64,000 nucleotides of DNA from Pseudomonadota bacterium (GCA_031416315.1 JANOTL010000136.1:1-64000); one strand, 5' to 3'. Positions 22,830-39,565 are shown, numbered from the stretch's first letter. Made by a program: numbers and translations. The notes: generated by a model not told the origin, from the letters alone.

Positions 22830-25253
22830 TCAGTACCACCAATACCACTGGTCGAAGCAGGTCTGATCGCACTGGTAGGCGACCGATCCGACCGGCGCCG
22901 CCGCGCTCAGATCGTTGACGTTCGCGGCGCGCACGCCGAAGTCGGAGATGGCGTAGACGATGTCGTCGGCGAAGAAGCTGCGGTTGACGCGGGCGCCGCC
23001 GAACCAGAAGCCCTCGTCGCGCTTCAGGCCGTCGTAGAGGCCGTCCATGCCGACTTTACCGACTTGGGCGATGCCGGCTCCGGCGTCGACCGAGAACACG
23101 AAGAGGGAGCTCTCGTAGCGGCTGTACCAGTACTTCGGCGAGTCGACGTAGGTGTAGCCGGTGATCGGCAGCGCGAGCAGCTTCTTCGAGGCGAAGTAGG
23201 TGAACGCTTTGTGGTCCCACTCGGCATCCGACCAGAACTGGCTGTTGCCGTCGCCGCCGAGCTCGAGCTTCTGCACTTCGAGCGGGTTCGCGAGGTCGGA
23301 GACGTCGAAGAGGGAGATCTTCATGCCGCCGTTCAAGCCGCTTTCGTCGCCGCTACGGCCGACCGCGAGAAGATGCGTGTCGTCGGTGAAGTGCATGTAG
23401 GACGAGTAGCCGGGGATCTTCAGGGCGCCCATGACCTTCGGTGCCGCCGGGTCGGCGAGATCCAAGGTGAAGAGCGGGTCGACCTGGCGGAAGGTGACGA
23501 TGAAGCCGCGGGGGCCGCGGAAGCGGGCGCTCATGATGCGCTCGCCCGGCGCGAGGTCCTCGGAGATGCCGACCTGCTTCAGCTCGGCGCCGACTTGCTC
23601 GAGGACGACGATGCGGTTGACGGTGACTGGCGGCACCCACTCCTGGAGCGCCAGGCCGGCCTTCGGCGCATCGGGGGCGGGCGCGTCCTCGGCGACGGGC
23701 GCCTCGGCCGAAACGGCGGTCCCGGCGCTGCCAACGCTCGCTCCCGAGGTCGCGACGCCTTCGCCTTGCGGCTGTGGCGAGTATTTCGTGTGCGTCGAGG
23801 CGACGCGCAGGCGGCCGTCGAACTCATCGAAGGAGAACTGGTTCAGCGGCATGCCTTCGATGCGGCCCGAGGCGAGATAAGGGGCGGTGGCCGGATCTTT
23901 CAGGTTGAACTTGTGGACGAAGGTCGCGTCGGTGTCACGGCTGTCCGAGCTCCACCACCAGTAGCGCGAGGCGAGGTAGAGGTTGTCGAGCGAAGCGTAG
24001 ACCTCGTCGACGTGGCTCAGCAGCAGCGTCTCGGAGATCGTGCCTTGGTCGAGGTCGAGCGAGGCGACGCGCGTCAGGCCCGACTGCGAGGCGACGGTCG
24101 GCGCGTGGATGCCCGAGCAGGTGCCGAGGTCGACCAGCGGCTCCTTCACGCCGGCCGTGCCGAGCTTGAAGTCGGCGTCGAAGTTGAGCCAGTACTTCAA
24201 GTCCTTTGCCTTAATGAGCGCCTCGTTCTCCAAGACGAAGGCCTTCAGGCGCGCGATCTTCTCGTCTTTCTTCAGCGTCTGCGATTCGGGATAGTCGATC
24301 CACATCTTCAAGCCGTCCAAATAGGGACGGTAAGTCTGCAGAACGAGGCGGACAGCGCCGCCGATGCGGCGCGAGGCGAGGTGGTTGCCGCGCAGCATGA
24401 ATTTCCCGGTGAGCGCGGGGGCGGCCGGGTTGGTGACGTCGATGGTCGAGACTTCGACGCGCTCGCGGTCGAAACGCGGCATGTTGCTCGGGAAAGGCGC
24501 GATGTCGATGGCGGGCTCCGCCATCCCGCCATTGCTGCCGGAGTATTTCGCGGCTTCGGCCGCGAGGTCCTCGGCCGTCATCCGCGGATGCGACAGGACG
24601 ACCAAGCGATGTTTCGCTTCGTCGAGGAGGAGCTCGAACGCGCGACCCTCGAGATCCAGCGTCGAGACGAGGCCCATCTCGTTCGCGGGCCAGCTCTTCA
24701 AGATGCGCAGCTTGCCGCGCGAGGCGTGGAAGACGTGGGTGCCGTCGTTCTTGACGAAGTCGCCTTCCTCGACGCCTTCGACCTGATTGTTGGTGCCGGT
24801 GTGCTCTTTCGGGCCGGACGCGGCATCGCCGCCGCCGTCGCTGGCGCCCGAAGCTTCGACGGCGCTCTCGGGAGCCGCGCCCGGCATGGCGACGCTCGAC
24901 TTGGCATCGCCGCCGATCGACTGGGGGCTCTCCAGCCACTTGATCTGGTCTTCGATCTGGCGGCGCATCGAGGCGATCTCGTCGTTCTCGATGTAAGCCT
25001 CGACCGCGCTACAGTCGGGGAAGGTCACTAGGGCCCCGGTGAGCGCCAAGGGGCTCGGCTGCTTGCCGCCGGGCGTCGTGCCGTTCGGATCGCTGGGCTT
25101 GGTCGGATCGGCCGGCTTGACGGGCGCCGGCTCGGTCTTCGACGCCTTGCCCCCGCTCTCGTCTTTTCGCTCGAAGGCACCGCAGGCGGTCGTCGTGGCG
25201 ATCAACGCGAGCGCGGCGAGGCGCGCGGCGAGAAAGCGGGAATAGTTCATCAT
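22830..25253 (-). CDS. Secreted beta-propeller domain lipoprotein (Beta_propel family)
   Basis: Lipobox TTAC; TNNQVEGVEEGDFVKNDG, LNQFSFDE, VTFRQVDPLF, LKIPGYSSYMH, KISLFDVSD. Confidence 0.85.
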   Translation of the reverse strand: MMNYSRFLAARLAALALIATTTACGAFERKDESGGKASKTEPAPVKPADPTKPSDPNGTTPGGKQPSPLALTGALVTFPDCSAVEAYIENDEIASMRRQIEDQIKWLESPQSIGGDAKSSVAMPGAAPESAVEASGASDGGGDAASGPKEHTGTNNQVEGVEEGDFVKNDGTHVFHASRGKLRILKSWPANEMGLVSTLDLEGRAFELLLDEAKHRLVVLSHPRMTAEDLAAEAAKYSGSNGGMAEPAIDIAPFPSNMPRFDRERVEVSTIDVTNPAAPALTGKFMLRGNHLASRRIGGAVRLVLQTYRPYLDGLKMWIDYPESQTLKKDEKIARLKAFVLENEALIKAKDLKYWLNFDADFKLGTAGVKEPLVDLGTCSGIHAPTVASQSGLTRVASLDLDQGTISETLLLSHVDEVYASLDNLYLASRYWWWSSDSRDTDATFVHKFNLKDPATAPYLASGRIEGMPLNQFSFDEFDGRLRVASTHTKYSPQPQGEGVATSGASVGSAGTAVSAEAPVAEDAPAPDAPKAGLALQEWVPPVTVNRIVVLEQVGAELKQVGISEDLAPGERIMSARFRGPRGFIVTFRQVDPLFTLDLADPAAPKVMGALKIPGYSSYMHFTDDTHLLAVGRSGDESGLNGGMKISLFDVSDLANPLEVQKLELGGDGNSQFWSDAEWDHKAFTYFASKKLLALPITGYTYVDSPKYWYSRYESSLFVFSVDAGAGIAQVGKVGMDGLYDGLKRDEGFWFGGARVNRSFFADDIVYAISDFGVRAANVNDLSAAAPVGSVAYQCDQTCFDQWYWWY

Positions 25254-25383: not shown

Positions 25384-25911
25384 TTACCAATCGAGACGCC
25401 ACATTAGCTCATGACTGTCGACCTCCAGGGCCGCGGCCACCGGGGCGAAGTCCATCTTCTCGACGGCGGGGCCGAGGCAGCCTGGGAGCGGCTCGGTACC
25501 GGCGCCGGGGACACCGACGGCCCTCAGGTTTTTCAGTTTACCCGCCTTCAGCAGCGTCGCTGCGACGTGGAGTGAGGCGGGGCCGGGCGCCGCGTCTCGC
25601 AGGCAGCGAAGCGCCTCCGTCTGCGCCTGACGGCGAAAGGAGGCGATAAACGCCTCGCGATCGATCGGCGGCGGCGCATCGGTTTGGAAGGAGGCGAGCT
25701 TGCCGTGCGCCGGGGCCTGGCCGACGCGCCGCGGCGGCGGCGGCGGGACCTCGGCGACGGAGGGCGCCTCCGGGCCGAGCGCCTCGGGAAATTCGGGGCC
25801 GATCATCAGCGCCCAAAAGATCGCGATCCAGAGGAGGACGTAGCTCGCCTTCGCGAGCCGGAGCGAAAGCTCGGGAGCCGTGACCCTGCCGAGGGACTCG
25901 AGGTCCTTCAA
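25384..25911 (-). CDS. Single-pass membrane protein with Pro-rich linker and TonB-C/AgmX-PglI-C-like domain
   Basis: TTG start overlapping the upstream TGA; TM YVLLWIAIFWALMIG; PPPPP linker; LRCL...HVAATLLKAGKL...GCLG...MDF pattern. Confidence 0.55.
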   Translation of the reverse strand: MKDLESLGRVTAPELSLRLAKASYVLLWIAIFWALMIGPEFPEALGPEAPSVAEVPPPPPRRVGQAPAHGKLASFQTDAPPPIDREAFIASFRRQAQTEALRCLRDAAPGPASLHVAATLLKAGKLKNLRAVGVPGAGTEPLPGCLGPAVEKMDFAPVAAALEVDSHELMWRLDW

Positions 25912-27854
25912 CGAATCACCCAGCCGCGCTTGGTCGCGGCGTCGGGGACGGCGAGAAGATCGCGCAGCGGCAGGCTCGAAGGTGCGTTCCAGGAGTAAGG
26001 ATTCGCCAGCGCCGCGTCCTGCTCGAGGTCGACGACGCCGATCTGCGTCATGCCGCGGCGCGCCGCGGCTGCGCCCTTCTGCCACGCGTCGTCCTCAACG
26101 GTGAACGCCTGCAGGAGCTCGGCGAGCGCCTGATGATTGCCGCCGGTGCCGCCCTTCGCCAACTCTTCGCGCAGGTAGGTCGCGACGCGCGCTTGATAGG
26201 GTTTTAGCGACTCCCGCGTCTCTGCGGTGACGCCTGCGGCCCGCTCGGCGATCTGTGTCAGGGTGCGTAGAACCGGCATCGGCGGCCTTGCGCCGGTCTT
26301 CGCCAGCGCGTCGAAGATGCCGTCGAAGCGCGGGAATTGGCGCCGTGCGAGCGCGTCGAGGAGCTCCGCCGAGGTGCCGGAGAGCTCTCGCGCCGCGTTC
26401 GTGCGGCTCGTCTTGATGCGCACGAGCAGGCGGTCGTAGGCTTTCACCGAGCCGGCCAAGGCCTGCTCCAGCAGCACGGCGCGATAAACCTGGCCCCAGC
26501 GCGCCGTCGGCAAGGAGCCCTGGATCGCGCCGAGCATCGCCTCGTCGTACTGGTGCTCGCGGAAAATCGCGACCGCGAGGCGAAGAGCGCCGTTCATCGC
26601 CACGTCGTCTCCCTCGCCTTCCGGCTCGATCGTCAGGCGCCGCACCATGCCGAGCGTGCCGGTCAAGTCCCCTTCCTCGAAGGCGAGGCGCGCGCGGCGC
26701 AAGAGAATCCGCGGTCGCATGGGCAGGCCGTCGATCGCCAAAAGCTTGTCGAACAGCTCCTTTTGGCGGCCGAAGGACCACTTGTCGAAATCGACGGCGC
26801 CGAGCCAGGCGGCGACGTCGGGCGTGGGCGTGGCGAGGATGATCTGGGCCACCGTCTCGTAACGCGGGTCTTTCTCGCCGAGGGGCATCGGCGCGAAGAT
26901 GCCGGCCTCGATGAGCTTCTGCCAGGCGAAGCGTCGCTCGGGCTCGGGTACGCGGATCCAGCCGGCGGCATCGCGGTCTTTATAGCGCTTGGTCACCTCG
27001 GCGATCGTCTCTTTGTCCTTGTCCGCCAGCGCGAGCGCCAAGAGACGCAGGACGACGGCGTCATGGCCGGGCAAGGGCGCGGCGAAACCGCCGTCTTCGG
27101 GCTTCGCCTCGGAGAGAAGCACGTACTCCACGAGCGCAAGCTTTTCCCCGCGCTTCACCCCCTGCGCATCGGCGTACTCGCCGTGGCGGAAGCGGCAGCC
27201 CTTCGTCGAAATGAGCGTCGCCTTCGGGATGTCTCCGAGAAAGTGCGGGAACTCGAAGGCGAGGTGGGTCTGGCGGCGGCCCGTCGCGGCCAAACGGTAG
27301 GGATCGCCGTTGTAGCGGCCGTCGCGATAACGCGAGGCGTAGCGAAACGCATAGGCTTTGGTCAGAAGGTCGAAGAGATGCGGCTTGGCGTCGAGGCTCG
27401 TGGCGCAGGACCCGGATTTCAGGGCCGAGACTTTCGAGTAGTAACCCAAGAACGGGTCGTCCAGCTCCAGCCGCCGACCAACTTCGGCCACCCGCCAGGC
27501 TTCCTGATGGCGGTTGGCGAGGAGGTGCATGCGGGCGGCATCGATCAGCTTCAGGCTCCAGTCGGGGGTGCCGGCCTTGATCGCGGCATAGAGCTCGGCC
27601 GCGCGCGGGAGGTCCTTCGCCTCCAGCGCCGCGCGCGCCGCGGCCAGCGCCGGCGAGGCCGCGGGCGGCGGGGCGAAGAGGGCGGTCACGTCGTCCCCGA
27701 TCGGGCCGGCTTTCGCCCCGGTGGGATCTCGGCTGGACCACCACGGGACGTCGGGGTCCTCGGCGGGGGAGAGCTCGGGCTCGGGCTCTTCGCCCTGCGC
27801 GGTCGCAGGGAGGAGGGCGATCATTAGAAATATCTTGTTTAGTTGAAAGACCAC
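25908..27854 (-). CDS. Large secreted helical-repeat (TPR-like) protein
   Basis: Signal peptide MVFQLNKIFLMIALLPATAQG; repeated amphipathic helices such as LRRARLAFEEGDL. Confidence 0.65.
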   Translation of the reverse strand: MVFQLNKIFLMIALLPATAQGEEPEPELSPAEDPDVPWWSSRDPTGAKAGPIGDDVTALFAPPPAASPALAAARAALEAKDLPRAAELYAAIKAGTPDWSLKLIDAARMHLLANRHQEAWRVAEVGRRLELDDPFLGYYSKVSALKSGSCATSLDAKPHLFDLLTKAYAFRYASRYRDGRYNGDPYRLAATGRRQTHLAFEFPHFLGDIPKATLISTKGCRFRHGEYADAQGVKRGEKLALVEYVLLSEAKPEDGGFAAPLPGHDAVVLRLLALALADKDKETIAEVTKRYKDRDAAGWIRVPEPERRFAWQKLIEAGIFAPMPLGEKDPRYETVAQIILATPTPDVAAWLGAVDFDKWSFGRQKELFDKLLAIDGLPMRPRILLRRARLAFEEGDLTGTLGMVRRLTIEPEGEGDDVAMNGALRLAVAIFREHQYDEAMLGAIQGSLPTARWGQVYRAVLLEQALAGSVKAYDRLLVRIKTSRTNAARELSGTSAELLDALARRQFPRFDGIFDALAKTGARPPMPVLRTLTQIAERAAGVTAETRESLKPYQARVATYLREELAKGGTGGNHQALAELLQAFTVEDDAWQKGAAAARRGMTQIGVVDLEQDAALANPYSWNAPSSLPLRDLLAVPDAATKRGWVIR

Positions 27855-28543
27855 ATCGCGCCCGTCGAGAAGTGCTGCCACGCGCCGAGCCCCGGCGCCG
27901 ATCCACGCAAGCCCGCCTGCCGGTCCATCTCGAGAAAAAAGCCGACGTTTTTCGGCACGAAGATCTGCAGCCGCAGGCCGACCTCCAGCGCGAAGACGTA
28001 TTTCGCCTTCCTTTGCCCGGGCAAGCGCGAGGTGTCGTCGCCCTTCTTCGGCAAGGTCTGGGCGTTCGGCTCGTTGTAGTGCGCCATGCCGGTGAGGTAG
28101 AGCACGTGCTCGAAGTCGCTCAGCCAAGGTGACAGCCGCGTCATGCTTCGCCCCTCGAGGAGCGCGTAGCCCCCGCCGGCGCCGACCTCGTAGCGCGTCA
28201 CCTGCGCCGATTGCCGGTACGGCGTCTTCTCCAAGAGCTCGCCAGCGCGCGAAGGATGCACGTACATGCGGCGCAGCACCATCCGGGCCATCATCCCGCT
28301 GTCGAACGGCATCTGGGCGCCGACGTGCCAGCCGTTGCCGTCGAAGTTGTTGGCCTCGTCGACGTAGTCGACCCCGACCTCGGCCTCGACCACCGCCTTG
28401 CGCCAGTCGTACGCGTGCGGGCTGGTGCTCTGGGACATCACCTCGTCGACGAGGACGCCGCCGGTCAGGACGTCGGCGCCCTCGGCCACGGGCGCCGTGA
28501 GACCTGCGCACAAGAGGACGTGAAAGAAGCGGGCTCGCGTCAC
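27839..28543 (-). CDS. Outer-membrane beta-barrel protein
   Basis: GTGA coupling; signal peptide; amphipathic strands; C-terminus STGAMWSFN. Confidence 0.65.
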   Translation of the reverse strand: MTRARFFHVLLCAGLTAPVAEGADVLTGGVLVDEVMSQSTSPHAYDWRKAVVEAEVGVDYVDEANNFDGNGWHVGAQMPFDSGMMARMVLRRMYVHPSRAGELLEKTPYRQSAQVTRYEVGAGGGYALLEGRSMTRLSPWLSDFEHVLYLTGMAHYNEPNAQTLPKKGDDTSRLPGQRKAKYVFALEVGLRLQIFVPKNVGFFLEMDRQAGLRGSAPGLGAWQHFSTGAMWSFN

Positions 28544-30645
28544 GCCGGCGTCTCCTTTCCGGCGCTCGCCGCGTCGAAAGTGGGATGGATCGCGGCCGGG
28601 CAGGAGGCGCCCTCCTTCTCTTTCCACGGCGCGTGGATCTGGTAGGTGCCGCCCTCGTCGAAGAAAGGATGATCGCAGAAACGCCGGCACACCTGCATGT
28701 AGTCCCCGATGTTCCAGCGGTCGATCCCCCACTTTGGATCGCCGAGCGCCTCGCGGTTCTTGAAGCTTCTTTGGAACGGAATGACGCTGACGACGTTGCC
28801 GGTAAGGGCGGAGGTGTAGCTTACTGCACCGATGTACGGAAAATCCCAGGCGGTCCCGACGCGGTACTCGCCCGCGGCCGAATCGGACATCCACAGCGCC
28901 GCCGCCTCGACGATGGTGAAGCTTTCCTGCTCGGCGGGCATGTCGTCCAAGCGAAAGCGGAGATTGCCCAGGATCTCGGCGCCGCCCTTGTCTAGACAGA
29001 GGCGGATCACTTGACCGTCGGAGAGGACGAGCCGCTCGCCGTCGTGGAAGGTCACCTGCTTGCCCGCTTCCTGCCGCGTGTTGGCGCCGGTCGGCACCGA
29101 GCTGAAGCCGACGCTCGGATTCTTCGCGAGGCCGCGGTCGCCGTATTTGTCGACGTATTTCTGGTAGTCCGCGAGGGACGGGAAGGCGCCCATCGGCGTG
29201 ATGAAGTTGATCACCGTCAAGTCGAGGTTGGTCGTCGGCGTCACCGAGCAGTTCTCGTTCAAGCCGGCGGGCTGCGGGTCGAAAATCAATTCCTCCGGTG
29301 TAATCGCTTGCGGGCACCACAAGAGGAGCTTCCGCTGCGCTGCCGTCGGGCGGAAATCCGTGCGGCTGTCGTAGACGAAGCCGCCGACGAGCCGAGGCGA
29401 GACGTTCGCGGCCTCGCTCGCGATCTGCGCCGACAAGGACTCGGCGATGATCTGGTGGAAACGCCGGAACTCCTTGCTCAGGTTCTGATGGAATAGGACG
29501 ACGAAGACGAAGTCGCGGCCGTCGGAGCTTTCTTGCTTCACCAAGGTGAGGCGCTCGACCATCAGCGTCTCGAAGGCGGTCTTGAACTCGGCCTCCTTGC
29601 CAACGCGGAAGCAGAGATCGACCGGCCGGTCCGGAAGCCCGAGGATGTATTTCTGATAGGTGAAGAAGTCGGCGTCGGTGACCTGATCTGCCTGCGGATC
29701 GTCCTGGCAGTAGCGCAAGACGATCGGCATCTCGATCGCTTTCCGGAGCGGCGTGAGAAAGGTGTAAGACGAGGGCCCGAGCTCCGGGTTCTTCTGCGCG
29801 TAGCCGCTGCCGAGAAAGAGGCGCGCGCCCTTCTTGTCGAGAAACTCGCCGGTGAAACAGACGCCGCGCTCGCCGCCGGCGGGATCGAAGCGCGGCGGGA
29901 GCCAGCTCTTCTCGCCGACGAACTCGGCAGAGACGGCGCCCGCCGCCGCGGGCGCGCAAAAAGCCGGGGTGAAGAGGAAGTCGGAGCCCTGGGCGCGCGC
30001 CGTCTGGATCTCGTCCGCCGTCGTCGCCACGAGCGCGGGCTCGCGGATGCGAAAACGGCGGCGCATGCCGTATCTCAGAATCTCCGCGTCGCCCGGCGCG
30101 CCGAAGTTGTGGTGCACCCGGGTTTGCACGTGCTCGTTGGTCACGTCCCAGACGCCGTAGAGAAAGGCGCTGTGGGCGCTCGCATCCGTGCCCGCCGGGT
30201 GCGCTTGGACGGAGGCCTCGAGCTCGAGGAAGAGCGAGGCGTCGGGGTTGTAGTTGACGCGCACTGTCATCGAGTCCAAAGGCTTGTCGGTCACGAAGCT
30301 GTAGCTGCCGCAGATCCTCCGTGCGCCGCAGCTCTCCACCGAGTGCTCGTGCACGCCGGCGGCGAAGTCGATGCGCGCCCAGTCGTGGATCTCGGTGCCC
30401 CCAGCGGGTGTCTTCAGCGTATAGCGCATCTCCCAGAAGGCCTGCTCGAGCAGCGCCGGGTCCTCGGCGACGGAGAAGAAGACGTAGGCGACGTTCTCGT
30501 TGCCGAACCAGTGGGCGTTGGCGGCGGTGAAGCTGCCTTGTTGCTCGATTAGGGGGACTTTGCGGCAGGCGGTGACGTTGGCGCTTACGCCTACGACGAC
30601 GAGCGCGAGCGCGAGCGCGAGCGCGGGCGGGGACGGGCGGGTCAC
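28540..30645 (-). CDS. Large Cys-rich lipoprotein of unknown function
   Basis: GTGA coupling; lipobox VTAC; about 700 aa with multiple Cys pairs. Confidence 0.7.
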   Translation of the reverse strand: MTRPSPPALALALALVVVGVSANVTACRKVPLIEQQGSFTAANAHWFGNENVAYVFFSVAEDPALLEQAFWEMRYTLKTPAGGTEIHDWARIDFAAGVHEHSVESCGARRICGSYSFVTDKPLDSMTVRVNYNPDASLFLELEASVQAHPAGTDASAHSAFLYGVWDVTNEHVQTRVHHNFGAPGDAEILRYGMRRRFRIREPALVATTADEIQTARAQGSDFLFTPAFCAPAAAGAVSAEFVGEKSWLPPRFDPAGGERGVCFTGEFLDKKGARLFLGSGYAQKNPELGPSSYTFLTPLRKAIEMPIVLRYCQDDPQADQVTDADFFTYQKYILGLPDRPVDLCFRVGKEAEFKTAFETLMVERLTLVKQESSDGRDFVFVVLFHQNLSKEFRRFHQIIAESLSAQIASEAANVSPRLVGGFVYDSRTDFRPTAAQRKLLLWCPQAITPEELIFDPQPAGLNENCSVTPTTNLDLTVINFITPMGAFPSLADYQKYVDKYGDRGLAKNPSVGFSSVPTGANTRQEAGKQVTFHDGERLVLSDGQVIRLCLDKGGAEILGNLRFRLDDMPAEQESFTIVEAAALWMSDSAAGEYRVGTAWDFPYIGAVSYTSALTGNVVSVIPFQRSFKNREALGDPKWGIDRWNIGDYMQVCRRFCDHPFFDEGGTYQIHAPWKEKEGASCPAAIHPTFDAASAGKETPA

Positions 30646-31391
30646 GGTTGGGAGAGGAGCCACTGGACCACCTGTGCCGTGTCTGCCTTGATCGTCGCGG
30701 CGCGCGCGGCGATGCCGGCGTCCGACGGATCGACGTTGTCGATCGGGGTGCCGTCGACGCGGGCGTCGGTCGCGGTGGCGCCGCTCCACGAGGAGAAATA
30801 GCCTTCGGTCGAATGCTCGAGGACGAAGTGCGTCACCGTCCGGGCCTTCCGGCCGCTCTGCACCATCTTGTCCCAGGCGAACCAGTTCGGCTTGAGGACG
30901 ACATCGGGCGGGTCGAGCTCCACGTCCCCTTCCCAAAACACGGCACGCAGCTCGATCAAGGGACGATCGAGCGGATCGTCGGCCGGATCGGGATCCGGCG
31001 CCCAAGGCTTGGCGCTGATCGCGGCGCCGCGGACGACGGTCAGCGTGTCGCAGTCGTCCTTCGTGACGGGGCGCGGCCGGAGGACGAAGTTCTGCGCGAT
31101 GCCGGCGAGCGCCGCCGACAGCGAGGCGACGCGCTGCGCCCATTCGGATTTTCTGAATTCGGCGATGCCGTCGTTCGGAAAGCAGCCGTCGTCGGCGACC
31201 GCGTCGTCGGTCAGGTAGATGGGCTCGAACAGCACGTAGAATAGCGGCGGAATCGTGGGAATTGGCGGCGGCGGCGGCGTGGGATCGTCACCCGAGCCGT
31301 CTTTCTTGTCGTACTCCCAGCCTTCGTAGCAGCCGGGGAGCCCGGCAACGACGAAGAGGAGGACGAAGATGCGCGCCGCGTGGAGCATCAC
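30642..31391 (-). CDS. Lipoprotein of unknown function
   Basis: Lipobox LPGC; Pro-rich N-terminus; 4-bp overlaps on both sides. Confidence 0.7.
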   Translation of the reverse strand: MMLHAARIFVLLFVVAGLPGCYEGWEYDKKDGSGDDPTPPPPPIPTIPPLFYVLFEPIYLTDDAVADDGCFPNDGIAEFRKSEWAQRVASLSAALAGIAQNFVLRPRPVTKDDCDTLTVVRGAAISAKPWAPDPDPADDPLDRPLIELRAVFWEGDVELDPPDVVLKPNWFAWDKMVQSGRKARTVTHFVLEHSTEGYFSSWSGATATDARVDGTPIDNVDPSDAGIAARAATIKADTAQVVQWLLSQP

Positions 31392-33118
31392 TTGATGACC
31401 TTCGCGTTGATGGCGCCGAGGTCTATCAGACCCTGCGCATCCTTTTCTTTGACGAACGCGGAGACCTGCGTCCGGGCCTCGTTCGCCAGCGCCCGGTCCG
31501 GATGCGCCGCGTTGAGATAGCGTCCGATCGACTCAGCCAGGCGCGGCTTCAGGCGGCCCAGGATCTCCTTCCTGGCCTCGTGCTGCTCCAAATACGCCGC
31601 CGCGGCCTTGGGATTCAGGGCCAAGAAGGCCTCGGTGAGGAGCGCGTCGGGAAGATGCGCGAGGGAGGCGTCGAGGAAGATCCGCGGCGAGACCGCTTGG
31701 GCCAGCTCGGGACGCGACTTCGCGATGCCCTGCCACAGCTCCTTCCTCTCGTCTGGGCCGAGCGCGTTCAACGCCTGCTCGAGGAGCGGCACGCGGCGGA
31801 GCGGCACGGTGCGCAGATCGCCGTGGCTCGACTCGTGGATCTCGCGCATTTTCCGCGCCGTGCCGCGCACGACCGGATCGGGAACCTTGTCGACCGTCGC
31901 CAGCTGCTCGACGAAGGCGGAGAGGAAGCTGGCGTCGGAAGCGGCGAAGAAATCGTCGCGCAGAAGCCGCGGCATGTTGGCGATGGCGACGACGGCCTCG
32001 GTGGTGCTGAGCTCGGCGAGGAGGCCCTTCGCCTCGTCGACGGTGAGGTTCGCCATGAAGGCGAATTCGTCCTCGAGCGCCGTCTCGTCGGTGAGCCGCA
32101 CCTTCGCTCCGACTAGGCGCCGCTCGACGCGCTCGAGGAAGTTCCAAGAATCCGAGATGGTCGTCTTCTTCGGCCCCGCTTCCAGGCTTACTTCCTGCGT
32201 ATAGGCCTCTGAAAGGCGCGAAAGCTTGGACGCGAGCTGCGGCTTCTTCTTCAGGCTCGCCAGGGGCTCCGGGCCGAAGTGGCGGAGGAAGAGGCAGAGC
32301 TCGTCGTATTGATCGCTTTCGAGGAGCGGCCGCAGGACCTGCTCGGTCAGAAGGGGCGACTCGGCGAGGGCGCCTCGGAGCTGCTCCGTCTTCGTCATCA
32401 GCATGTAAGGCGAGGCATTCGCCTCGGGCGCTTCCGCCTTGACGGCGAGCGAGGTCGAGTCGACCTCCGTCGGCAGCGCCACGCGCGGCGCCATCTCGTC
32501 CTTCGGCCGCGTCTTTCCGAGGCGGCGCAGGCCCCAGATCAAGCCGAGGAGCACCAACATGCCGACGAGCGCGCAGGCGAGCCACGGCAGGACCGGGATG
32601 AGCGAGGCGGCGATCTGCTCGTTCACGGTCGGCGGCGGGGGCGGCGGGGGCGCGGGCTGCTGCGGCAAGAGCTCCGGCGGCTTCGTGGCGTTGACGACGT
32701 CGGGCTTCGGATTCAGCATGCGACTCGTGAGTTGGAGCGCGACGCCGGTGGCCTTCACCTTCTGCAGGAGGCGCTGGCGCAAGCTCGCGAGCTGCTTCGC
32801 GTCCATTCCCGGCTCGTAGGTGAACTCGCAGCGCACGGAGGCGAGCTTGTACTGCACGGATTTCGGCGGCGCATCCTCGAAATCCAAGCCGGGGAGCGAC
32901 GACCCCTGCCGCTCGTCCAAGGTCAAAAAGCGCGTGGTCTCGCAGCCGACGGCGCTACAGATGTTGTTCGGGCACTCCTCCTCCAGCACGGCGGCGAAGC
33001 GGTCGGCGATGCCCGCCGTCTCGGCGGCGATCCCCGGGGGAATCTGCGTCTTTTGCGCGAAGGCCGCCGAGCTCACGAGAAGAAAGGGTCCCAGCTTCCA
33101 CGTCATCTTCATCCTCAT
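31388..33118 (-). CDS. Membrane-anchored FliG-like rotor protein (signal peptide, periplasmic domain, TM, FliG middle/C-terminal-like domains)
   Basis: FAFMANLTVDEAKGLLAELSTTEAVVAIANM...LATVDKVPDPVV resembles FliG-M; ALNALGPDERKELWQGIAKSRPELAQAVSPRIF...KEILGRLKPRLAESI...EARTQVSAFVKEKDAQGLIDL resembles FliG-C. Confidence 0.7.
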   Translation of the reverse strand: MRMKMTWKLGPFLLVSSAAFAQKTQIPPGIAAETAGIADRFAAVLEEECPNNICSAVGCETTRFLTLDERQGSSLPGLDFEDAPPKSVQYKLASVRCEFTYEPGMDAKQLASLRQRLLQKVKATGVALQLTSRMLNPKPDVVNATKPPELLPQQPAPPPPPPPTVNEQIAASLIPVLPWLACALVGMLVLLGLIWGLRRLGKTRPKDEMAPRVALPTEVDSTSLAVKAEAPEANASPYMLMTKTEQLRGALAESPLLTEQVLRPLLESDQYDELCLFLRHFGPEPLASLKKKPQLASKLSRLSEAYTQEVSLEAGPKKTTISDSWNFLERVERRLVGAKVRLTDETALEDEFAFMANLTVDEAKGLLAELSTTEAVVAIANMPRLLRDDFFAASDASFLSAFVEQLATVDKVPDPVVRGTARKMREIHESSHGDLRTVPLRRVPLLEQALNALGPDERKELWQGIAKSRPELAQAVSPRIFLDASLAHLPDALLTEAFLALNPKAAAAYLEQHEARKEILGRLKPRLAESIGRYLNAAHPDRALANEARTQVSAFVKEKDAQGLIDLGAINAKVIK

Positions 33119-33810
33119 TCCGCTCCACCTTCCGCTTCGGGCTCCGCCTGACCCTCATCCTTCGGCGAAGCCGGTGCGCCCGAGAGCGAGCGCTCCAGCT
33201 CCGCGATCTGCGCCGCGACGCGGCGATTGGGCTCGATCTCCTCCGCCTTGCGATAGGCCTCGAGCGCCGCCGCGCGCTCGCCGATCTTCAGCAAGAGCGA
33301 GCCTTTGATCCGGAGCGACTCGACGTGCGCCGGGTATTTCGCCAGGAGCTGGTCCGCGTACTGCAAAGCCAGGGCGAAATTCCCGTCGCGCACGAGCTTT
33401 CGGATCATCTCGTGCGTGCGCACGATGCTCGTCGTCGGTGCCTTGGCCTGCACCGGCTGGCCGCTGGAGAGGTAGGCGTCCTCCGCGCTCTTGTCGGCGG
33501 CGGTCGGCGGCAGGGGCACCAAGGACAGCGCGGGCGCGGCGTCCTTCGACTTGTTGTCGACCAAAATCTGCTGGCCGGAGGAGAGGATCGGGATCATCAC
33601 CTCCGTCATCGTCGAGCCGTCGTTGTAGACCACCTTGACGTTGTAGGGGGAGAGCATCGCCGGCTTGTCGGGCGTGCCCTTCTCGCGGTCGGGCAAGGGG
33701 TAGTGCACCTCGTCCTCGACGACGTAGTTCCAGAACTCGCGGCCGGAGATGCAGCCCGTGAGGGCCGCCGCCGCGAGGACGAGGAGCAGGAGCTTGGCGA
33801 GCTGACGCAT
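33115..33810 (-). CDS. TPR-containing lipoprotein
   Basis: Lipobox LTGC; C-terminal TPRs (LRIKGSLLLKIGERAAALEAYRKAEEIEP). Confidence 0.8.
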   Translation of the reverse strand: MRQLAKLLLLVLAAAALTGCISGREFWNYVVEDEVHYPLPDREKGTPDKPAMLSPYNVKVVYNDGSTMTEVMIPILSSGQQILVDNKSKDAAPALSLVPLPPTAADKSAEDAYLSSGQPVQAKAPTTSIVRTHEMIRKLVRDGNFALALQYADQLLAKYPAHVESLRIKGSLLLKIGERAAALEAYRKAEEIEPNRRVAAQIAELERSLSGAPASPKDEGQAEPEAEGGAE

Positions 33811-33818
33811 GGATCCCC

Positions 33819-34778
33819 CTAGAGCATGAACGGCATGAGCAACGGATTGAAGAGGCTGATGCCAAGCGAGAGCGTGTTGTCGGTGTTGCCGATCGCGAAG
33901 ATTCCGAAGGTGGTGGAGAAGGCGTACTGGGCGCCGATCTGCAACACGAATTTCTTCGTCAGGTCGTCGTCGTCTTCGCCGATCGGGCCGGCGCCGAAGG
34001 CATTCTGCAACGGGTAGAAGAGCGTGCCGTTGAAGTTGAGCTTGCGCAAGGTCGGCATCATGTACTTGTAGGTGGCGCCGAGCGCGAAGGTCGGGCTGAA
34101 AAGGCTGAGGACGACGCCGGAAAGGTGCTGGTTGAGGCTTCCCCACTGCTCCAGATACTCCAGCTGGAACGTGCCAGTGGGGTAAGCGCCGAGGTTCAGG
34201 AAGATGTAGGCGAGCGACTCACCGAACTTGCGACGCTCGAGCTCGCGGGAAAGGTGGAGGTATGGCTTCGTATCCGAAAGCCGCTCGGAGCTATCGGCCA
34301 AGGCGAAGAAGAGGAGCGCGCCGTCGTCGAGCCCAATGACGCGCATTTCCACACCGGACGGCGTCTCCCGCACGGTCGCCACGCTCTTGGCGGCGCGAAA
34401 GCGGGGATCCTGACGCAAGCGCGCGATGTCGCCCAGGGCGAGCTCGCCGTTGCTGATCGAGACGCTCTGATTCTGCTGGATGTGGAGGCGGTGCGTATCG
34501 CAGTCCGGACAGATGATGACCGTACCTGCGTCCGGGATGACGTTCTTGATCACCGCGAGCGCGGAGCTGCCGAAGTCGTCGCGGGACTCCACCCAGACGT
34601 TTTTCGGCGGCGCCAGGAGCATCGGCACGATCTTGTTCTTGAGGCCCGGCTCGGTCTCCATGCGGTGGCGGAAAGAGTCCTCGAGCACGGCAAGGTCCTT
34701 GCCCGTCTGCGCCAGGACGGCGAAAGCGCGCGACGGCAGGAGCGCCGCGACAAAAAGCGCGAGGACGAGCCTTACCAT
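33819..34778 (-). CDS. Secreted CxxC protein with alpha/beta N-domain and beta-strand C-region (apparent paralog of the next gene)
   Basis: Signal peptide; ICPDC...SISNG; amphipathic strands in the C-terminal half. Confidence 0.65.
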   Translation of the reverse strand: MVRLVLALFVAALLPSRAFAVLAQTGKDLAVLEDSFRHRMETEPGLKNKIVPMLLAPPKNVWVESRDDFGSSALAVIKNVIPDAGTVIICPDCDTHRLHIQQNQSVSISNGELALGDIARLRQDPRFRAAKSVATVRETPSGVEMRVIGLDDGALLFFALADSSERLSDTKPYLHLSRELERRKFGESLAYIFLNLGAYPTGTFQLEYLEQWGSLNQHLSGVVLSLFSPTFALGATYKYMMPTLRKLNFNGTLFYPLQNAFGAGPIGEDDDDLTKKFVLQIGAQYAFSTTFGIFAIGNTDNTLSLGISLFNPLLMPFML

Positions 34779-35977
34779 CGGATCACCATGCCGATCCCCA
34801 TGTCTTGGTACGGGATGCCGATGAAGCGGTCGGAGGCGATGGTGTCGCTGTCTTTCAGCAGGGGCGAGTACTCGAGGAACGCCATCGCGCCGTAGCGATA
34901 TTTGATGTGCGTCTCGAGGCCGAGACGATACATGAGCAGCGTCGCCTTCGGCTCGTCGCGCTCGCGCAGGAGATTGTCGATGTCCATCTCCTCGGCGCCG
35001 AACGGCAAAGCGCCCGGACCGCGCAGACGCACGTAATGAAAGCCGCCAAACATGTAGACGTCGGGGTTGGCCAGGCTCGGCGTGTCGCCGAAGAGGAGCT
35101 GGGCCAGGTGACCGCCGACGCTGAAGCCTTGCATCGAGTCCTTGATGCTGGTGAAGCCGACCGTGACGGCAGCGCGCCGCGCCCGGTTCGGTAGGAGGAC
35201 GCCCTCGAAGCTCTGCTCGAAGAAGATGAGGGGCGCGGTCGTCTCGCCGAACGCGGTGTTGCTCAGGGTAAAGCTGCGCACGGAGAAGCGCGTCACCACC
35301 TCGAAGGCGTCGCGGCCCTGGATCAGCTCTTTTTGCTGCTTGCGCGCCTCTTCCAGGGAGATCAACGGCGTCGCTTCGCGTAGCACGCGGCGCGTCGACA
35401 TGGAGGTGGAGTAGCTTTTCGCCCAGACGATCGCCTGCGAGCCTTTCAACTCGAAGATCTGGGCGCGCAGGACGAGGTCGCGCGCCTCGGCCTCGAAGGA
35501 CAGGCTCAGCGCGAGGCGCTCGGGTGAAGCCTGCAGGAGCCCGGTCAGGACCTCCGGCTGGTCGATGCCGCGGCTGATGGTCGTGCCGCTTTGGGTCGAC
35601 TTCGCCACCATCTGCGTACAGATACTGCAATGCGTGAGCTTCACGGGTAGCCCCGGATTGGCGCGGACCAGCTCGAAAAGCCGATTCTCCACCAAGATCG
35701 TGAAGCGGTCGTCGAGGCCGATCGGCGCCGTCACCTCGACGAGGGTCACCGCGCGGGTCTCGCGGAAGGGCTGATCTTTCGCCCAGGAGAAGACCATGTC
35801 GTCGACTAGGTCGGCGCCCATGAGGCGGAGGTCTAGGTGGACGGGTTTTTCGTCGGGGGGGGTGGTGGCTTGGGCGGGGGGGGCGGCTACGAAACCGAAT
35901 GCGAATACGACTACGAATACGACGACGTTCACGAGCGCGAGCGCGGGCGCGGGGAGTCGTGGTTGGAGGAGCTTCAT
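34772..35977 (-). CDS. Secreted CxxC protein with FlgO/CsgG-like N-domain and C-terminal beta-barrel-like region
   Basis: Signal peptide; HCSIC...TISRG; LVLRAQIFEL..IVWAKS; ends GIGMVIRW. Confidence 0.65.
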   Translation of the reverse strand: MKLLQPRLPAPALALVNVVVFVVVFAFGFVAAPPAQATTPPDEKPVHLDLRLMGADLVDDMVFSWAKDQPFRETRAVTLVEVTAPIGLDDRFTILVENRLFELVRANPGLPVKLTHCSICTQMVAKSTQSGTTISRGIDQPEVLTGLLQASPERLALSLSFEAEARDLVLRAQIFELKGSQAIVWAKSYSTSMSTRRVLREATPLISLEEARKQQKELIQGRDAFEVVTRFSVRSFTLSNTAFGETTAPLIFFEQSFEGVLLPNRARRAAVTVGFTSIKDSMQGFSVGGHLAQLLFGDTPSLANPDVYMFGGFHYVRLRGPGALPFGAEEMDIDNLLRERDEPKATLLMYRLGLETHIKYRYGAMAFLEYSPLLKDSDTIASDRFIGIPYQDMGIGMVIRW

Positions 35978-36549
35978 AGGGCTCTCCAGGTCGCGGGCTC
36001 GCCGGCGATTTTGGGGCGGTCGAAGGCATAGACGCTGAATAAGAGGTTGGCGTCCTGAACGCGTCGTACTGAGATCACCAGCCGGCGCACTTCAGGATCT
36101 ACGGCGCGGCGCGCCACGCGGCCGCTACCTAACGCTTGCACCAGCTCCGTGCGCCAAATCGTCTCCACGTAATGCTTCACGTCGGGATCGTCGGCTTCGA
36201 CCTCGACCGACCAGACGGACGGCGCGGCGCGATCTTCTTGCGCCAGGCTGCGGGCGATCGCCTGCGCCTTTTTCACCGCGTGCTGCGAGACGTAGTCGGC
36301 GAACGTGTCGCGGTCGCCGAAGCGCACGGCGCGCGCCTCGCACACCCAGAATCCCTTCAAATTGAAGGTCGAGGCCTTGCCCTCGGGCGCAAGCCCGTCC
36401 TTTGACAGCTCCGCGCGCGTCGCCGGCCGGCATGGCGGCGGGCGATTTTCCTTTAAACCGAGCTCGTAGCGCGTCTGTGGCGTCATCAGCCATTCGCCTT
36501 GGCTGCCGATGCCGATGAGGAGGAGGATCGCGATCAGGAAGGGGCTCAC
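35974..36549 (-). CDS. Secreted hypothetical protein
   Basis: GTGA and ATGA coupling; hydrophobic N-terminus MSPFLIAILLLIGIG. Confidence 0.65.
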   Translation of the reverse strand: MSPFLIAILLLIGIGSQGEWLMTPQTRYELGLKENRPPPCRPATRAELSKDGLAPEGKASTFNLKGFWVCEARAVRFGDRDTFADYVSQHAVKKAQAIARSLAQEDRAAPSVWSVEVEADDPDVKHYVETIWRTELVQALGSGRVARRAVDPEVRRLVISVRRVQDANLLFSVYAFDRPKIAGEPATWRAL

Positions 36550-37379
36550 CTTTGGGCCTCCCCGGGAGCGAGGGCCGCGATGCGGTCGCGCGCCGCGAAC
36601 GTGTACACGGTGTTTTGCAAGTAGCGCAGGAAGAGCCGTCCGAAGATCTCGCGGTCTTCGTTCCGCCCGCGCTTGCGCAGATACTGCATGCCTAGGACCG
36701 GCAGCGCGGCGGCACCGAGGATGCGCCGCACTTTCAAGGACATCGTCTTGCGCACTTCGTTGCCGCGGGCGACGTCGAGCACGCGCAGCTCGGCGCCCGA
36801 ATCGATGTCCTCGAGGCAAGGTCCCATACCGAAGAAGAGGAGCGTCAGGATCGTGATGCCGCAATAGTCGGAGTCGGAGGCGCGCGAGACGTAGAGGACG
36901 GCGTAGTCGGGCGTCTCCTTCGCCTGATCGCCGTAGCGCCGCGGCAAGGGCTCGTCATTGCGACCACGTGGCCGTGGTGCTGCGAGCGCTTTGGAGCCGC
37001 TGCCGCCGCCTGATCCAACGCCAGAGGCGCTTCCAGAGCCGCTACCCGTGTCTTCGGCCTCTGGCGGGTCTTCGATCAGGATGGTAGCGCCGAGGTAGCC
37101 GAGCTCGACGCGCAATTTGCCGCAGTTTGGGCCGTCGTCCTTCGACGGCGGCTGATCGTCACCGCTGTCCAGGACGCAGTCGACGCGCAGCTTCACGCCC
37201 GCCAGGGCTTCCGCGTCGAGTCGCAAATCCGGGGACTCGGCCCACTCGCCCTCCGGGCGCACGAAAGAGATGCACCCCGAGAGGAGCGCGGTCGCGACGA
37301 AAAGGAGAGCCGCTCGGCCCACTTTTGACACGAGCGCTCGGGTGTCTGTATCTTTGAGGGACGGTTTCGCATTCATCAT
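36546..37379 (-). CDS. Lipoprotein of unknown function (first gene of the operon; start uncertain)
   Basis: Lipobox LSGC; GS-rich insert; CGITILTLLFFGMGPC hydrophobic hairpin. Confidence 0.7.
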   Translation of the reverse strand: MMNAKPSLKDTDTRALVSKVGRAALLFVATALLSGCISFVRPEGEWAESPDLRLDAEALAGVKLRVDCVLDSGDDQPPSKDDGPNCGKLRVELGYLGATILIEDPPEAEDTGSGSGSASGVGSGGGSGSKALAAPRPRGRNDEPLPRRYGDQAKETPDYAVLYVSRASDSDYCGITILTLLFFGMGPCLEDIDSGAELRVLDVARGNEVRKTMSLKVRRILGAAALPVLGMQYLRKRGRNEDREIFGRLFLRYLQNTVYTFAARDRIAALAPGEAQR

Positions 37380-37436: not shown

Positions 37437-38177
37437 ATGATCACGCCGCTCGTCGGCCTCGCGATCCTGATCTTCGTTTTCAAGGTCGCCGTCACCGAGC
37501 GCGCCGGCGGCGAGCTCTCGTTCTTCGACTATCACGCCGCGCTCGTCGTCTTCGGCGGCGTCCTGGGCGCGCTCTGTCTCGCCATCGACTGGCGGGCGCT
37601 TTTACGCATGTTCATCGGCCTGCGCGACCTCCTGCCGACCACCAGCATCTTCACGCACGAGATGCGCAAGACGCAGAATTCGCTCATTAGCCTGCGCGAA
37701 TCCTGGCGCGAAGGACGCCGCGCGGTCGTCCTCGACATGGCCGACAAGGGGCCGACGCTCGAGATCCGCGTCGCCGCGGACGCTCTCATGCGCCAGCTCA
37801 CGGGCGCTGCGCTCGTGGAGCGCTTCTCCGAGATGCGCACGCGCTACATCGCCGTGAATCAGCCGATGATCGAGGGCTGGGACCTGATCGGCCGCATGGC
37901 GCCGTCGTTCGGCATGGTCGGCACGGTGACGGGCATGGTCCAGCTTTTCAAGAACATGGCGGCCGAGTCGGGCAACCTCGGCGGCGCCATGGCGATGGCG
38001 CTGCTCGCGACGCTCTACGGCATCACGTTCGGCGCCGCGGTCGGCAGCCCGATGGCGACGCGCCTCAACAACCAGCTGAACGAGCGGCTCAACATGATCG
38101 ACCTGCTCGAGCACACCGTCGCCTCGCTGCTCGCCGAAGGCGGCGGCGCCGCCCAACGCGTCCGCGCGGCGGAGTGA
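37437..38177 (+). CDS. motA: MotA-family ion channel (stator A subunit)
   Basis: FFDYHAALVVFGGVLGA, APSFGMVGTVTGMV, AMALLATLYG. Confidence 0.88.
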   Translation: MITPLVGLAILIFVFKVAVTERAGGELSFFDYHAALVVFGGVLGALCLAIDWRALLRMFIGLRDLLPTTSIFTHEMRKTQNSLISLRESWREGRRAVVLDMADKGPTLEIRVAADALMRQLTGAALVERFSEMRTRYIAVNQPMIEGWDLIGRMAPSFGMVGTVTGMVQLFKNMAAESGNLGGAMAMALLATLYGITFGAAVGSPMATRLNNQLNERLNMIDLLEHTVASLLAEGGGAAQRVRAAE

Positions 38178-38181
38178 GCCG

Positions 38182-38814
38182 ATGCGCCACCCGAGCCGGC
38201 TGAAGACCGGAAACGAAGGCTGGCTCACGAGCTATGCCGACCTGATCACCAACCTGCTGATCTTCTTCGTCCTCATCATCTCGGCCTCGTCCATTCAGAC
38301 GGGCAAAATGGAGAAGATCGTCCAGCAGATCAGCCAGGGAAAACCCCCGGCCGACTCGCTCGCCGCCGCCGAGAAGAAGGTGAAGGCGGCGATCAAGGAG
38401 GAGAACCTCCAAGACGACGTGACCGTGCAGCTCACCGACGACGGCCTCGAGCTCTCGTTCGAGTCGGGCGTCGTCTTCGCCTCGGGCAGCGCCACGATCC
38501 TCCCGCAGATGGAGACGCCTTTGGCGAAGGTCTTGACCGTGTTGGAGCCATACGCGAAAAAGTACCGCTTCGCCGTCGAGGGTCACACCGACGAGACGCC
38601 GATCAGCTCGGGCAGCTTCAAGTCGAACTGGGAGCTGTCGAGCGCGCGTGCGATGCAGGTGCGCGAGCGTATCGAGCTGGTCGGCGTCGAGAAGCAGCGC
38701 ATCCGCGTCGAAGCCTATGGCGAGACCAAGTCGTTGCCGGCCGAGGCGCTGCAGGGCCTCGGGCGGGAAGACGTCCTGGCGAAGCACCGGCGCGTCGTCG
38801 TACGGCTTTACTAG
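38182..38814 (+). CDS. motB: MotB-family stator B subunit with OmpA-like PG-binding domain
   Basis: WLTSYADLITNLLIFFV (conserved Asp), VEGHTD, NWELSSARA, HRRV. Confidence 0.9.
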   Translation: MRHPSRLKTGNEGWLTSYADLITNLLIFFVLIISASSIQTGKMEKIVQQISQGKPPADSLAAAEKKVKAAIKEENLQDDVTVQLTDDGLELSFESGVVFASGSATILPQMETPLAKVLTVLEPYAKKYRFAVEGHTDETPISSGSFKSNWELSSARAMQVRERIELVGVEKQRIRVEAYGETKSLPAEALQGLGREDVLAKHRRVVVRLY

Positions 38815-38815
38815 C

Positions 38816-39565
38816 GTGCGCCGCCTTCTCTTCGCGCTCTTGGTGCTGATCGGCGTGCCGCTCACCGGCTGCGCCACGATGTTCAACTCCGGCGACGAGC
38901 TCGACGTGAGGTCTACGCCTGCCGGCGCCGACGTCGCCATCGACGAGCTCGAGCCAAGCTGCACGACGCCGTGCGCGATGGAGATCAAGCCCGATCGCTA
39001 CATGCTGCACATCCGGCTGAAGGGCTATAAGCCCGTCGACATTCAGCTGGTGAAGCGGATGTCGGGCTGGTTCTGGGCCAACTTCGCCGTCGGCCCGTAC
39101 GCCGTCATCGGCATGGGCGTGGACTGGCTCACCGGCTCCATCATGCGTCTCGATCCGAACGAGATCGACGTGAAGCTCGTGCCGATGGAGGCGGATAAGC
39201 CCAAGGTCGAGGAAGAGGAAGAGGAAGAGGAGGAAGAAGAGGAAGAGCAGGACGAGCCTGAGGCGCCGCCACCCCCGCCGAGCGGGACACCGCAAGTGCT
39301 GAAGGGCGACGAGCCGCCGCCGCCGAAGCCTGCCGATGAGCCGCCGCCCTTGCCGGCGTCGCCGGAGGTGAAAGCGCTAAAAGCCGGGACGCCCGAGCCG
39401 TACTTGGATCGGCAGATCGATCTCTACTACGGCGGTACGAGCGCGAAGAAGAAGGCCGTGCTGCGAAACCGGCTTTACCGGATCATGCTGGAGCAGCAGA
39501 AGAGTGGCGGGAGGGCGGATTTGGAGGAGGCGATTCGGGTGGAGAGGGAGAGGTTCGGGCCTTAG
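38816..39565 (+). CDS. PEGA-domain lipoprotein with poly-Glu/Pro-rich tail
   Basis: Lipobox LTGC; VRSTPAGADVAID..TTP..LKGY; run of Glu codons around 39205-39250. Confidence 0.75.
   Translation: MRRLLFALLVLIGVPLTGCATMFNSGDELDVRSTPAGADVAIDELEPSCTTPCAMEIKPDRYMLHIRLKGYKPVDIQLVKRMSGWFWANFAVGPYAVIGMGVDWLTGSIMRLDPNEIDVKLVPMEADKPKVEEEEEEEEEEEEEQDEPEAPPPPPSGTPQVLKGDEPPPPKPADEPPPLPASPEVKALKAGTPEPYLDRQIDLYYGGTSAKKKAVLRNRLYRIMLEQQKSGGRADLEEAIRVERERFGP

Follow-up and report, generated by a model that had tools for sequence, protein, structure and literature searches.

The nearest published case of a single-chain hybrid between the flagellar MS-ring protein FliF and the rotor protein FliG is the natural fusion of the Chlamydiaceae, a protein of about 330 amino acids (aa) with two transmembrane (TM) helices and without the SpoIIIAG-like domain (the third ring-building motif, RBM3), whose cytosolic part is homologous to FliG-M only and which is proposed to act with the injectisome (accessible text of PMC4768692). 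Here, we describe a gene that we call FG (31388..33118, minus strand), found on a 64,000-nucleotide (nt) stretch of DNA from a Pseudomonadota bacterium (GCA_031416315.1, JANOTL010000136.1:1-64000; hereafter, the window). It encodes a 576-aa protein with a likely signal peptide, an RBM-like periplasmic domain, a Pro-rich stalk, a TM helix and a FliG-like cytoplasmic region. Like the chlamydial protein, it is a natural one-chain FliF/FliG hybrid in a nonflagellar setting, but it keeps an RBM3-like domain together with FliG-M and FliG-C and has its own MotA and MotB, whereas the accessible text on Chlamydia names no stator (PMC4768692).

Three other systems invite comparison. With the flagellar motor core (the FliF MS-ring, FliG, and MotA5B2 or PomAB), FG shares the FliG-M+C fold and sequence and an RBM3-like domain that precedes the TM helix, and the linked MotB has the plug, the TM Asp and the OmpA domain. 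However, FG is one chain with one RBM, one TM helix, four invariant Cys and no EHPQ motif; a likely signal peptide replaces the first TM helix, RBM1 and RBM2 of FliF; the torque charges are rewired or lost; and the cluster has outer membrane barrels and lipoproteins rather than linked FliM/FliN, export and rod genes. With the Ton, Tol-Pal and Myxococcus Agl-Glt machineries, the cluster shares the 5:2-type ion motor family, TPR proteins, small barrels, a TolB-N-like domain and a TonB-shaped protein spanning the envelope, but its stator is of the MotA/MotB and not the ExbBD/TolQR/AglRQS type, and it includes a FliG-like protein. The gliding motor of the Bacteroidota type IX secretion system, where GldLM drives GldKN (accessible text of PMC13104615), is a functional analogue in that stators fixed in place and powered by ions set an envelope assembly in motion, no flagellum being involved; no homology to it was seen, and the driven ring predicted here would lie in the inner membrane and be engaged from the cytoplasm. 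We propose that the cluster works like the flagellar motor core and yet, on the features tested, belongs neither to FliG or FliF nor to the flagellum or the Ton/Tol/Agl-Glt machineries. The literature search returned laboratory FliF-FliG fusions and the Chlamydia case and no description of this cluster, subscription papers and supplements being largely outside the search; the accessible part of PMC13277936 leaves such fusions unmentioned.

Our preferred reading, to which we give a probability of roughly 0.55, is that FG and its neighbors form a switch-less, nonflagellar rotor-stator machine acting on the outer membrane. Its basis is the FliG-M+C homology, the motAB linkage, the conserved envelope genes and the lack of linked export, switch and rod genes. 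The strongest evidence is the gene context, i.e., dedicated motAB and envelope genes, which the first-pass annotation of this DNA did not mention.

The cytoplasmic half of FG resembles FliG-M and FliG-C

FG is a genuine open reading frame (ORF) with zero internal stops, and it overlaps both neighboring genes, by 4 nt upstream and by 1 nt downstream. Full-length homologues are plentiful: among 1.84 billion representatives, a profile search retrieved 100 matches with an E value of <=1e-30 and 828 with one of <=0.001. From 165 collected sequences, 80 full-length members were aligned, fragments and paralogous subfamilies being excluded, and a family profile was built from these 80 members without any FliG.

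FliG-M and FliG-C had been placed by eye in the first-pass annotation, and this collinearity with FliG was borne out by hhalign (92.8% over 212 columns; 92.8 to 95.6% across comparisons). Searched against the PDB, the family profile matched FliG-MC with an E value of 1.5e-16 over profile positions 347-569 (residues ~347-569 of FG; 31412..32080, minus strand). Among the 5,457 predicted proteins of the organism itself, it retrieved only FG, one paralogue and the two canonical FliGs. Structure gave the same picture. The AlphaFold model (mean pLDDT, 78; pTM, 0.32) is reliable for the domains and not for their arrangement; in Foldseek, ranks 1 to 13 of the top 50 listed were all FliG or C-ring chains, and FliG also held the top ranks in a VIA structural search. 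The FliG chain of 8ucs, a MotAB-FliG structure, superimposes on FG residues 482-566 with a Z score of 9.7 and a root mean square deviation (rmsd) of 2.5 Å (85/88 residues).

Used alone, the FG sequence stays below these levels. Its Pfam FliG_C score is 20.3 bits for a cut-off of 23.3 (PF01706; E value of 7e-4, whole profile covered), NCBIfam including TIGR00207 gave no match, a single-sequence search of the PDB gave none either, and FG scores like its own shuffles when compared with a profile made of 30 FliGs of its phylum. The similarity suggested earlier is therefore recovered by the family profile and missed by the Pfam threshold on the single protein; bringing out the FliG signal requires the family profile and the structural model. 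On these two grounds, the C-terminal half of FG is shown to be a distant FliG-M+C homologue.

The loss of the FliM-binding EHPQ motif had also been read correctly. FG has LSTT at residues 370-373, and EHPQ is found in 0/80 members. Switching by FliM and CheY is consequently unlikely.

FG is linked to a dedicated flagellar-type stator

Divergently from the FG gene cluster lie motA (37437..38177, plus strand; 246 aa) and motB (38182..38814, plus strand; 210 aa). MotB has a plug (PF13677, 6e-13) and an OmpA domain (PF00691, 3.7e-15), and its TM Asp20 motif is kept in 54/56 cluster MotBs. According to the accessible text of PMC12505986, plug and OmpA domain are features of flagellar-type stators that set them apart from ExbBD/TolQR. 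MotA had its best NCBIfam matches in MotP/MotA/PomA, and the cluster MotAs formed one clade of their own on the MotA side and not with ExbB/TolQ (a quick tree of 32 rows, SH-aLRT support of 99, long branches flagged). The linked MotAB can thus be assigned, from its sequence, to the flagellar type; its MotB retains the Asp and a domain that binds peptidoglycan.

To follow this linkage, we used 64 loci picked by FG alone, namely, 28 stretches of related genomes, two of these genomes being each split over two contigs, and 36 metagenome loci. motB was present in 57/64 and motA in 52/64. In 47 loci, motB lies directly upstream of FG on the same strand, and in 10 it is divergent, as in the window; the 7 loci without motB all end at most 3.6 kb upstream of FG. 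The stator linkage has survived a gene rearrangement. In locus L060, the motA-motB-FG copy is broken into many pieces, as a result of frameshifts or errors in sequencing.

The charges of the FliG torque helix are R281, D288 and D289 (accessible text of PMC12505986). We took the register of these positions in FG from FG-FliG profile alignments. The Escherichia coli contact code (R90 with D288-D289 and E98 with R281) is mostly gone from both FG and MotA. In cluster MotA, the R90 equivalent is basic in 36/49, and a WxxGxR motif is conserved, with W90 and K/R95 each in 49/49; the E98 equivalent is absent. That charges were lost on MotA and FG together suggests an orthogonal pair.

The cluster encodes conserved envelope proteins

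In the window, eleven closely packed genes run on the minus strand from about 37379 down to 25384 (g1 to g11 in order of coordinate, FG standing between g5 and g7), and motA, motB and a PEGA gene diverge from them at 37437-39565. Next to FG are g7 (33115..33810), a TPR protein with a lipobox-like motif, and g5 (30642..31388), a predicted lipoprotein found only in the gene arrangement of the window (13/64 loci). The gene g4 (28540..30645) encodes a Cys-rich predicted lipoprotein of 700 aa of no known family; g3 (27839..28543) encodes an exported protein that by eye looks like a small outer membrane barrel; g2 (25908..27824) encodes an exported protein of ~600 aa, helical by eye and of no known family; and g1 (25384..25911, start uncertain) encodes a TonB-shaped protein with a TM helix, a Pro-rich stalk and a small 2-Cys C-terminal domain. 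On the other side, g9 (34772..35977) has the predicted architecture of a TolB-N/LpoB-like domain followed by an 8-stranded OmpA-type beta-barrel, the barrel model overlaying that of OprF with a Z score of 15.2 and an rmsd of 2.4 Å (127 aligned residues). Its paralogue g8 (33819..34778; profile comparison, 90%) has a CxxC periplasmic domain and a likely C-terminal barrel. Finally, g10 (35974..36549) encodes a small exported or membrane protein and g11 (36546..37379, start uncertain) a predicted lipoprotein, neither of a known family. Lipobox-like motifs were seen in 26/36 members for g4, 33/45 for g7 and 23/29 for g11. The profiles of g4, g9, g8, g1 and g11 had no significant match among PDB sequences, and g4 had no usable match in the ESM Atlas.

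The conserved cluster comprises about 12 genes, and the common gene order among the 64 loci is g11-g10-g9-g8-g7-motA-motB-FG-g4-g3-g2-g1. In this arrangement, two distinct sequence clusters occupy the places of g10 (17 loci) and g1 (11 loci); this g1 aligns with g1 of the window, and g10 was matched by position only. Strong g4 matches and FG orthologues occur in the same 27 of the 116 genomes of the phylum that we sampled, one FG being only a short fragment and two weak partial g4 matches having been dropped. No further conserved neighbors of the cluster were found. Using 28 proteins from two flagellar regions of the organism as queries, we found no flagellar export, switch or rod gene in the cluster loci, the only matches being one CheY-like and one ATPase-like.

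The PEGA-domain predicted lipoprotein gene after motB (38816..39565, plus strand) occurs in 7/64 loci. Directly after the cluster, 22830-25253 (minus strand) encodes a predicted lipoprotein with a Beta_propel domain (PF09826), which is not conserved there in relatives. Promoters and terminators were found at chance level (1 versus 0.9 expected, and 11 versus 10.3); one sigma70-like site (37325-37354, plus strand) lies 83 nt upstream of motA, where the DNA is richer in AT, within that chance-level count.

Searching genome contigs with the single FG protein gave one locus only, and the plasmid collection gave no match. The search of RNA runs listed no RNA holder. The look-alike Atlas clusters of FG are mostly from Myxococcota and Bdellovibrionota.

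The periplasmic domain of FG has a predicted RBM topology

The periplasmic domain (residues 28-134; 32717..33037, minus strand) is the best conserved part of FG, since its four Cys (C49, C54, C59 and C97) as well as F41 and P76-G77 are invariant in all 80 members. Two disulfides are predicted. In the model, a helix (28-48) and a strand (54-67) are followed by a low-confidence insert with a conserved SLPG, a strand (89-101), a helix (107-121) and a last strand (127-134), so that the predicted topology, alpha-beta-(insert)-beta-alpha-beta, is in the RBM order. RBM3 of FliF carries a collar where the FG domain has this insert. In Foldseek, FliF RBM3 rings rank after FliG (E values of 0.02 to 0.16), interspersed with OsmC, and the domain overlays FliF RBM3 (8z5v) with a Z score of 8.6 and an rmsd of 3.4 Å (94 aligned residues). 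A weak, indirect chain of profiles leads from the FG domain to the first RBM of a paralogue that we call C130-type (81%) and from there to a third subfamily (99%); at its end, the paralogous domains match RBM3, with the collar omitted, at 19 to 23% and RBM2 at <1%. RBM3 ancestry is, by these comparisons, likely. The resemblance to RBM3 noted in the first-pass annotation therefore stands for the topology and for the presence of RBM3 among the best fold matches; it is qualified by a tie with other folds and by the lack of direct sequence similarity to FliF, both discussed below.

Beyond this domain, the stalk (~139-164) is visible in the sequence, with low model confidence, and a single TM helix lies at residues 176-194 by hydropathy (32537..32593, minus strand), 70/80 members having exactly one TM helix past residue 40. 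A likely signal peptide is seen by eye and indicated by homologues. Two TM helices flanking RBM1-RBM2-RBM3, as in FliF, are not found: FG has one TM helix and a single domain of ~110 aa. The earlier description of an MS-ring and C-ring in one protein was thus overstated, FG having one RBM and one TM helix, lacking RBM1 and RBM2 and being linked to no FliM/FliN. FG would correspond to no more than FliG together with the C-terminal half of FliF. When the periplasmic domain was submitted to a complex predictor in four copies, the median was 0.18 for a mark of 0.42, which speaks neither for nor against a ring.

Paralogues of FG are also found with motAB

At C109:107356-111441, a second RBM-TM-FliG-like gene of the genome (724 aa, long coiled stalk; FliG_N, 5e-6; FliG_C, 1e-4) is followed by a 74-aa ORF, motA and motB. 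A third paralogue (C130:71659-73899) has two tandem 2-Cys RBMs and retains an EKPQ motif. This C130 type is found in 66/116 genomes; in the usual case, motAB is not adjacent, and pilMNO and a cyclic nucleotide monophosphate-binding gene lie nearby. In one of the eight C130-type loci examined (L142, 2286-8065 of genome G100), the order is g8-like, g7-like, motA, motB, FG, and two paralogous FG types (C109 and L142) are thus also linked to motAB. The same five parts are scattered in the genome of the window over C105, C202 and C130, with an orphan motAB at C202:64926-66440 and a g8-like plus g7-like pair at C105:54157-56185. Given the L142 gene order, the window cluster is an elaborated, larger and divergent paralogue of a five-gene core.

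A further subfamily of 560 to 615 aa (P0125, P0130, P0132, P0135, P0143, P0151, P0153, P0157, P0161 and P0165) has a 2-Cys RBM (LCPGRCE-like) that is closer to FliF RBM3.

Proposed mechanism and alternative readings

In the mechanism that we favor, FG would assemble into an inner membrane ring through RBM contacts and ARM-M/ARM-C stacking, and peptidoglycan-anchored MotA5B2 units would turn this ring in one direction, without CheY switching. The WxxGxR motif of MotA may represent a rewired stator-rotor contact that keeps the cluster motor apart from the flagellar motor. The periplasmic RBM ring would hand movement to the lipoprotein and barrel module via g7, g8/g9, g4, g2 and g1. The output would most likely be the movement of an outer membrane-anchored assembly (surface motility or adhesin handling), the next likeliest outputs being outer membrane transport or envelope remodeling.

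Several observations weigh against this rotor-stator reading, and we consider them here together with the alternatives. The first ones concern FG itself. It is poorly conserved (median identity of 25%, versus 47 to 53% for MotA and MotB), and member by member, Pfam finds MgtE_N in 34/80 and FliG_C in 14/80. The helical segment 237-346 (32081..32410, minus strand) takes the position of FliF-C plus FliG-N with a similarity that is positional and not significant: the best local matches (FG 243-267 for FliF-C and 275-295 for the first helix of FliG-N) reach <=1% probability, the level of the four control windows against which they were judged, and whole-chain overlays on FliG span the segment, but at high rmsd. 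The periplasmic domain shows no direct similarity to profiles of FliF, RBM1/2 and RBM3 (0.3%), and its VIA Z scores of 8.1 to 8.6 to RBM3 are a tie with OsmC, the MamM C-terminal domain (CDF-CTD) and KH domains, none of which builds such rings. FG could be no motor part but a membrane sensor or scaffold in which generic ARM/MgtE_N repeats are combined with a periplasmic domain of the KH/OsmC kind, with motAB as a neighbor by history; the sub-threshold Pfam score, the shuffle-level match to FliG and the commonness of the periplasmic fold would fit this as well. MgtE_N and FliG share an ARM-like motif (accessible text of PMC11870540). The family profile, however, matches MgtE in the PDB at best with 1.5e-4 over ~65 positions (range of about 50 to 70), versus 220 collinear positions at 1.5e-16 for FliG, so that over the whole domain FliG remains the better match than MgtE_N or generic ARM repeats. 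The architecture of an MgtE transporter was not found either, FG having only the short ARM-like match and no CBS or MgtE membrane match; MgtE is also missing from the 50 best fold-search rows, where absence is no exclusion. With motAB linked in every long-enough locus and in three paralogous subfamilies, we consider a scaffold unrelated to a motor very unlikely.

The second group of observations concerns torque. The FG equivalents of D288 and D289 are acidic in 0/80 and 2/80 members, that of R281 is basic in 25/80, and the E98 equivalent of cluster MotA is acidic in 0/49. This charge loss may mean that no torque is transferred rather than that the contact was rewired, and this is where the rotor reading is weakest. 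Furthermore, the TonB-shaped g1 offers an alternative route for force. MotAB could energize g1, which would tug at the TolB-N/barrel proteins as in Ton or Tol systems, FG being a nonrotating scaffold or stator dock in which the FliG fold is kept. The TM helix, Pro stalk and small C-terminal domain of g1, its fixed place in both gene arrangements, the TolB-N-like domain of g9 and the lost canonical torque charges are all in agreement with this possibility, as is a faint AgmX/PglI match of the g1 C terminus (E value of 0.03, in 1/15 g1 proteins). The g1 profile had no match in Pfam or the PDB, although a TonB-like architecture fits; TonB C-terminal domains are absent among the 50 best fold-search rows, which is no exclusion, and none of the NCBIfam Glt/Agl models matched the cluster proteins beyond one faint hit. 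Yet the stator, with plug and OmpA domain, is of the flagellar and not the ExbBD/TolQR type (criteria from the accessible text of PMC12505986), FG has kept the entire FliG-M+C, and in L142, FG and motAB occur with no g1 seen, no g1-profile search having been made there. We therefore regard a Ton/Tol-like puller as possible but rather improbable.

Third, flagellar FliF is present in all 27 cluster carriers of the phylum sample, and the fliF operon of the organism (C67:37874-44735) is without fliG, hence its flagellar genes are scattered; FG and MotAB might then be an alternative rotor-stator set, or a periplasmic scaffold, of the ordinary flagellum. However, FliF is found in 101/116 genomes and the cluster in 27, so that this co-occurrence carries little information and the cluster is dispensable for a flagellum. 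The genome encodes a single FliF, a single FlhA, FliM/FliN and two canonical FliGs, along with a motAB that retains the canonical Arg and Glu, and its flagellum is, judging by these genes, separate from the cluster. Because EHPQ is absent, FG should not dock on FliM, and the cluster loci are without flagellar genes. In addition, two FG homologues are labeled Myxococcaceae and Myxococcales, which are mostly unflagellated. A flagellar accessory is thus quite unlikely, if somewhat less so than the scaffold considered first. The two canonical fliG genes stand alone (C50:21340-22341 and C16:265-1242), and two such genes are common in genomes of the phylum.

Implications

In the flagellum, FliG is the component known to receive torque. 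If the rotor-stator reading is true, a conserved module in which a membrane-bound FliG homologue is paired with its own flagellar-type stator and with outer membrane genes, but with no further part of a flagellum, would represent a novel class of envelope machine powered by ions. More tentatively, and with odds well short of even, the cluster could represent a rotary family apart from the flagellum, in which a one-chain RBM-TM-FliG rotor and an orthogonal MotAB with its own contact code drive a TolB-N/barrel-lipoprotein assembly for surface motility or prey contact, with three paralogous versions in this genome.

The cluster is relevant to the question of whether a rotor and a stator can persist and evolve as a pair in the absence of type III export. 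Through the charges lost jointly on MotA and FG, it also concerns how cross-talk is avoided between several MotAB motors in a single cell. It also provides a testable candidate for surface motility in groups whose motor is still open. In the accessible text of a 2026 review, the gliding machinery of Bdellovibrio is given as unidentified (PMC13104615); we make no claim of a link between the cluster and Bdellovibrio. Overall, should the more tentative reading of a separate rotary family hold true, FliG would here drive a motor other than the flagellum for the first time, and this motor would be either a living model of one that preceded the flagellum or a clear instance of re-use.

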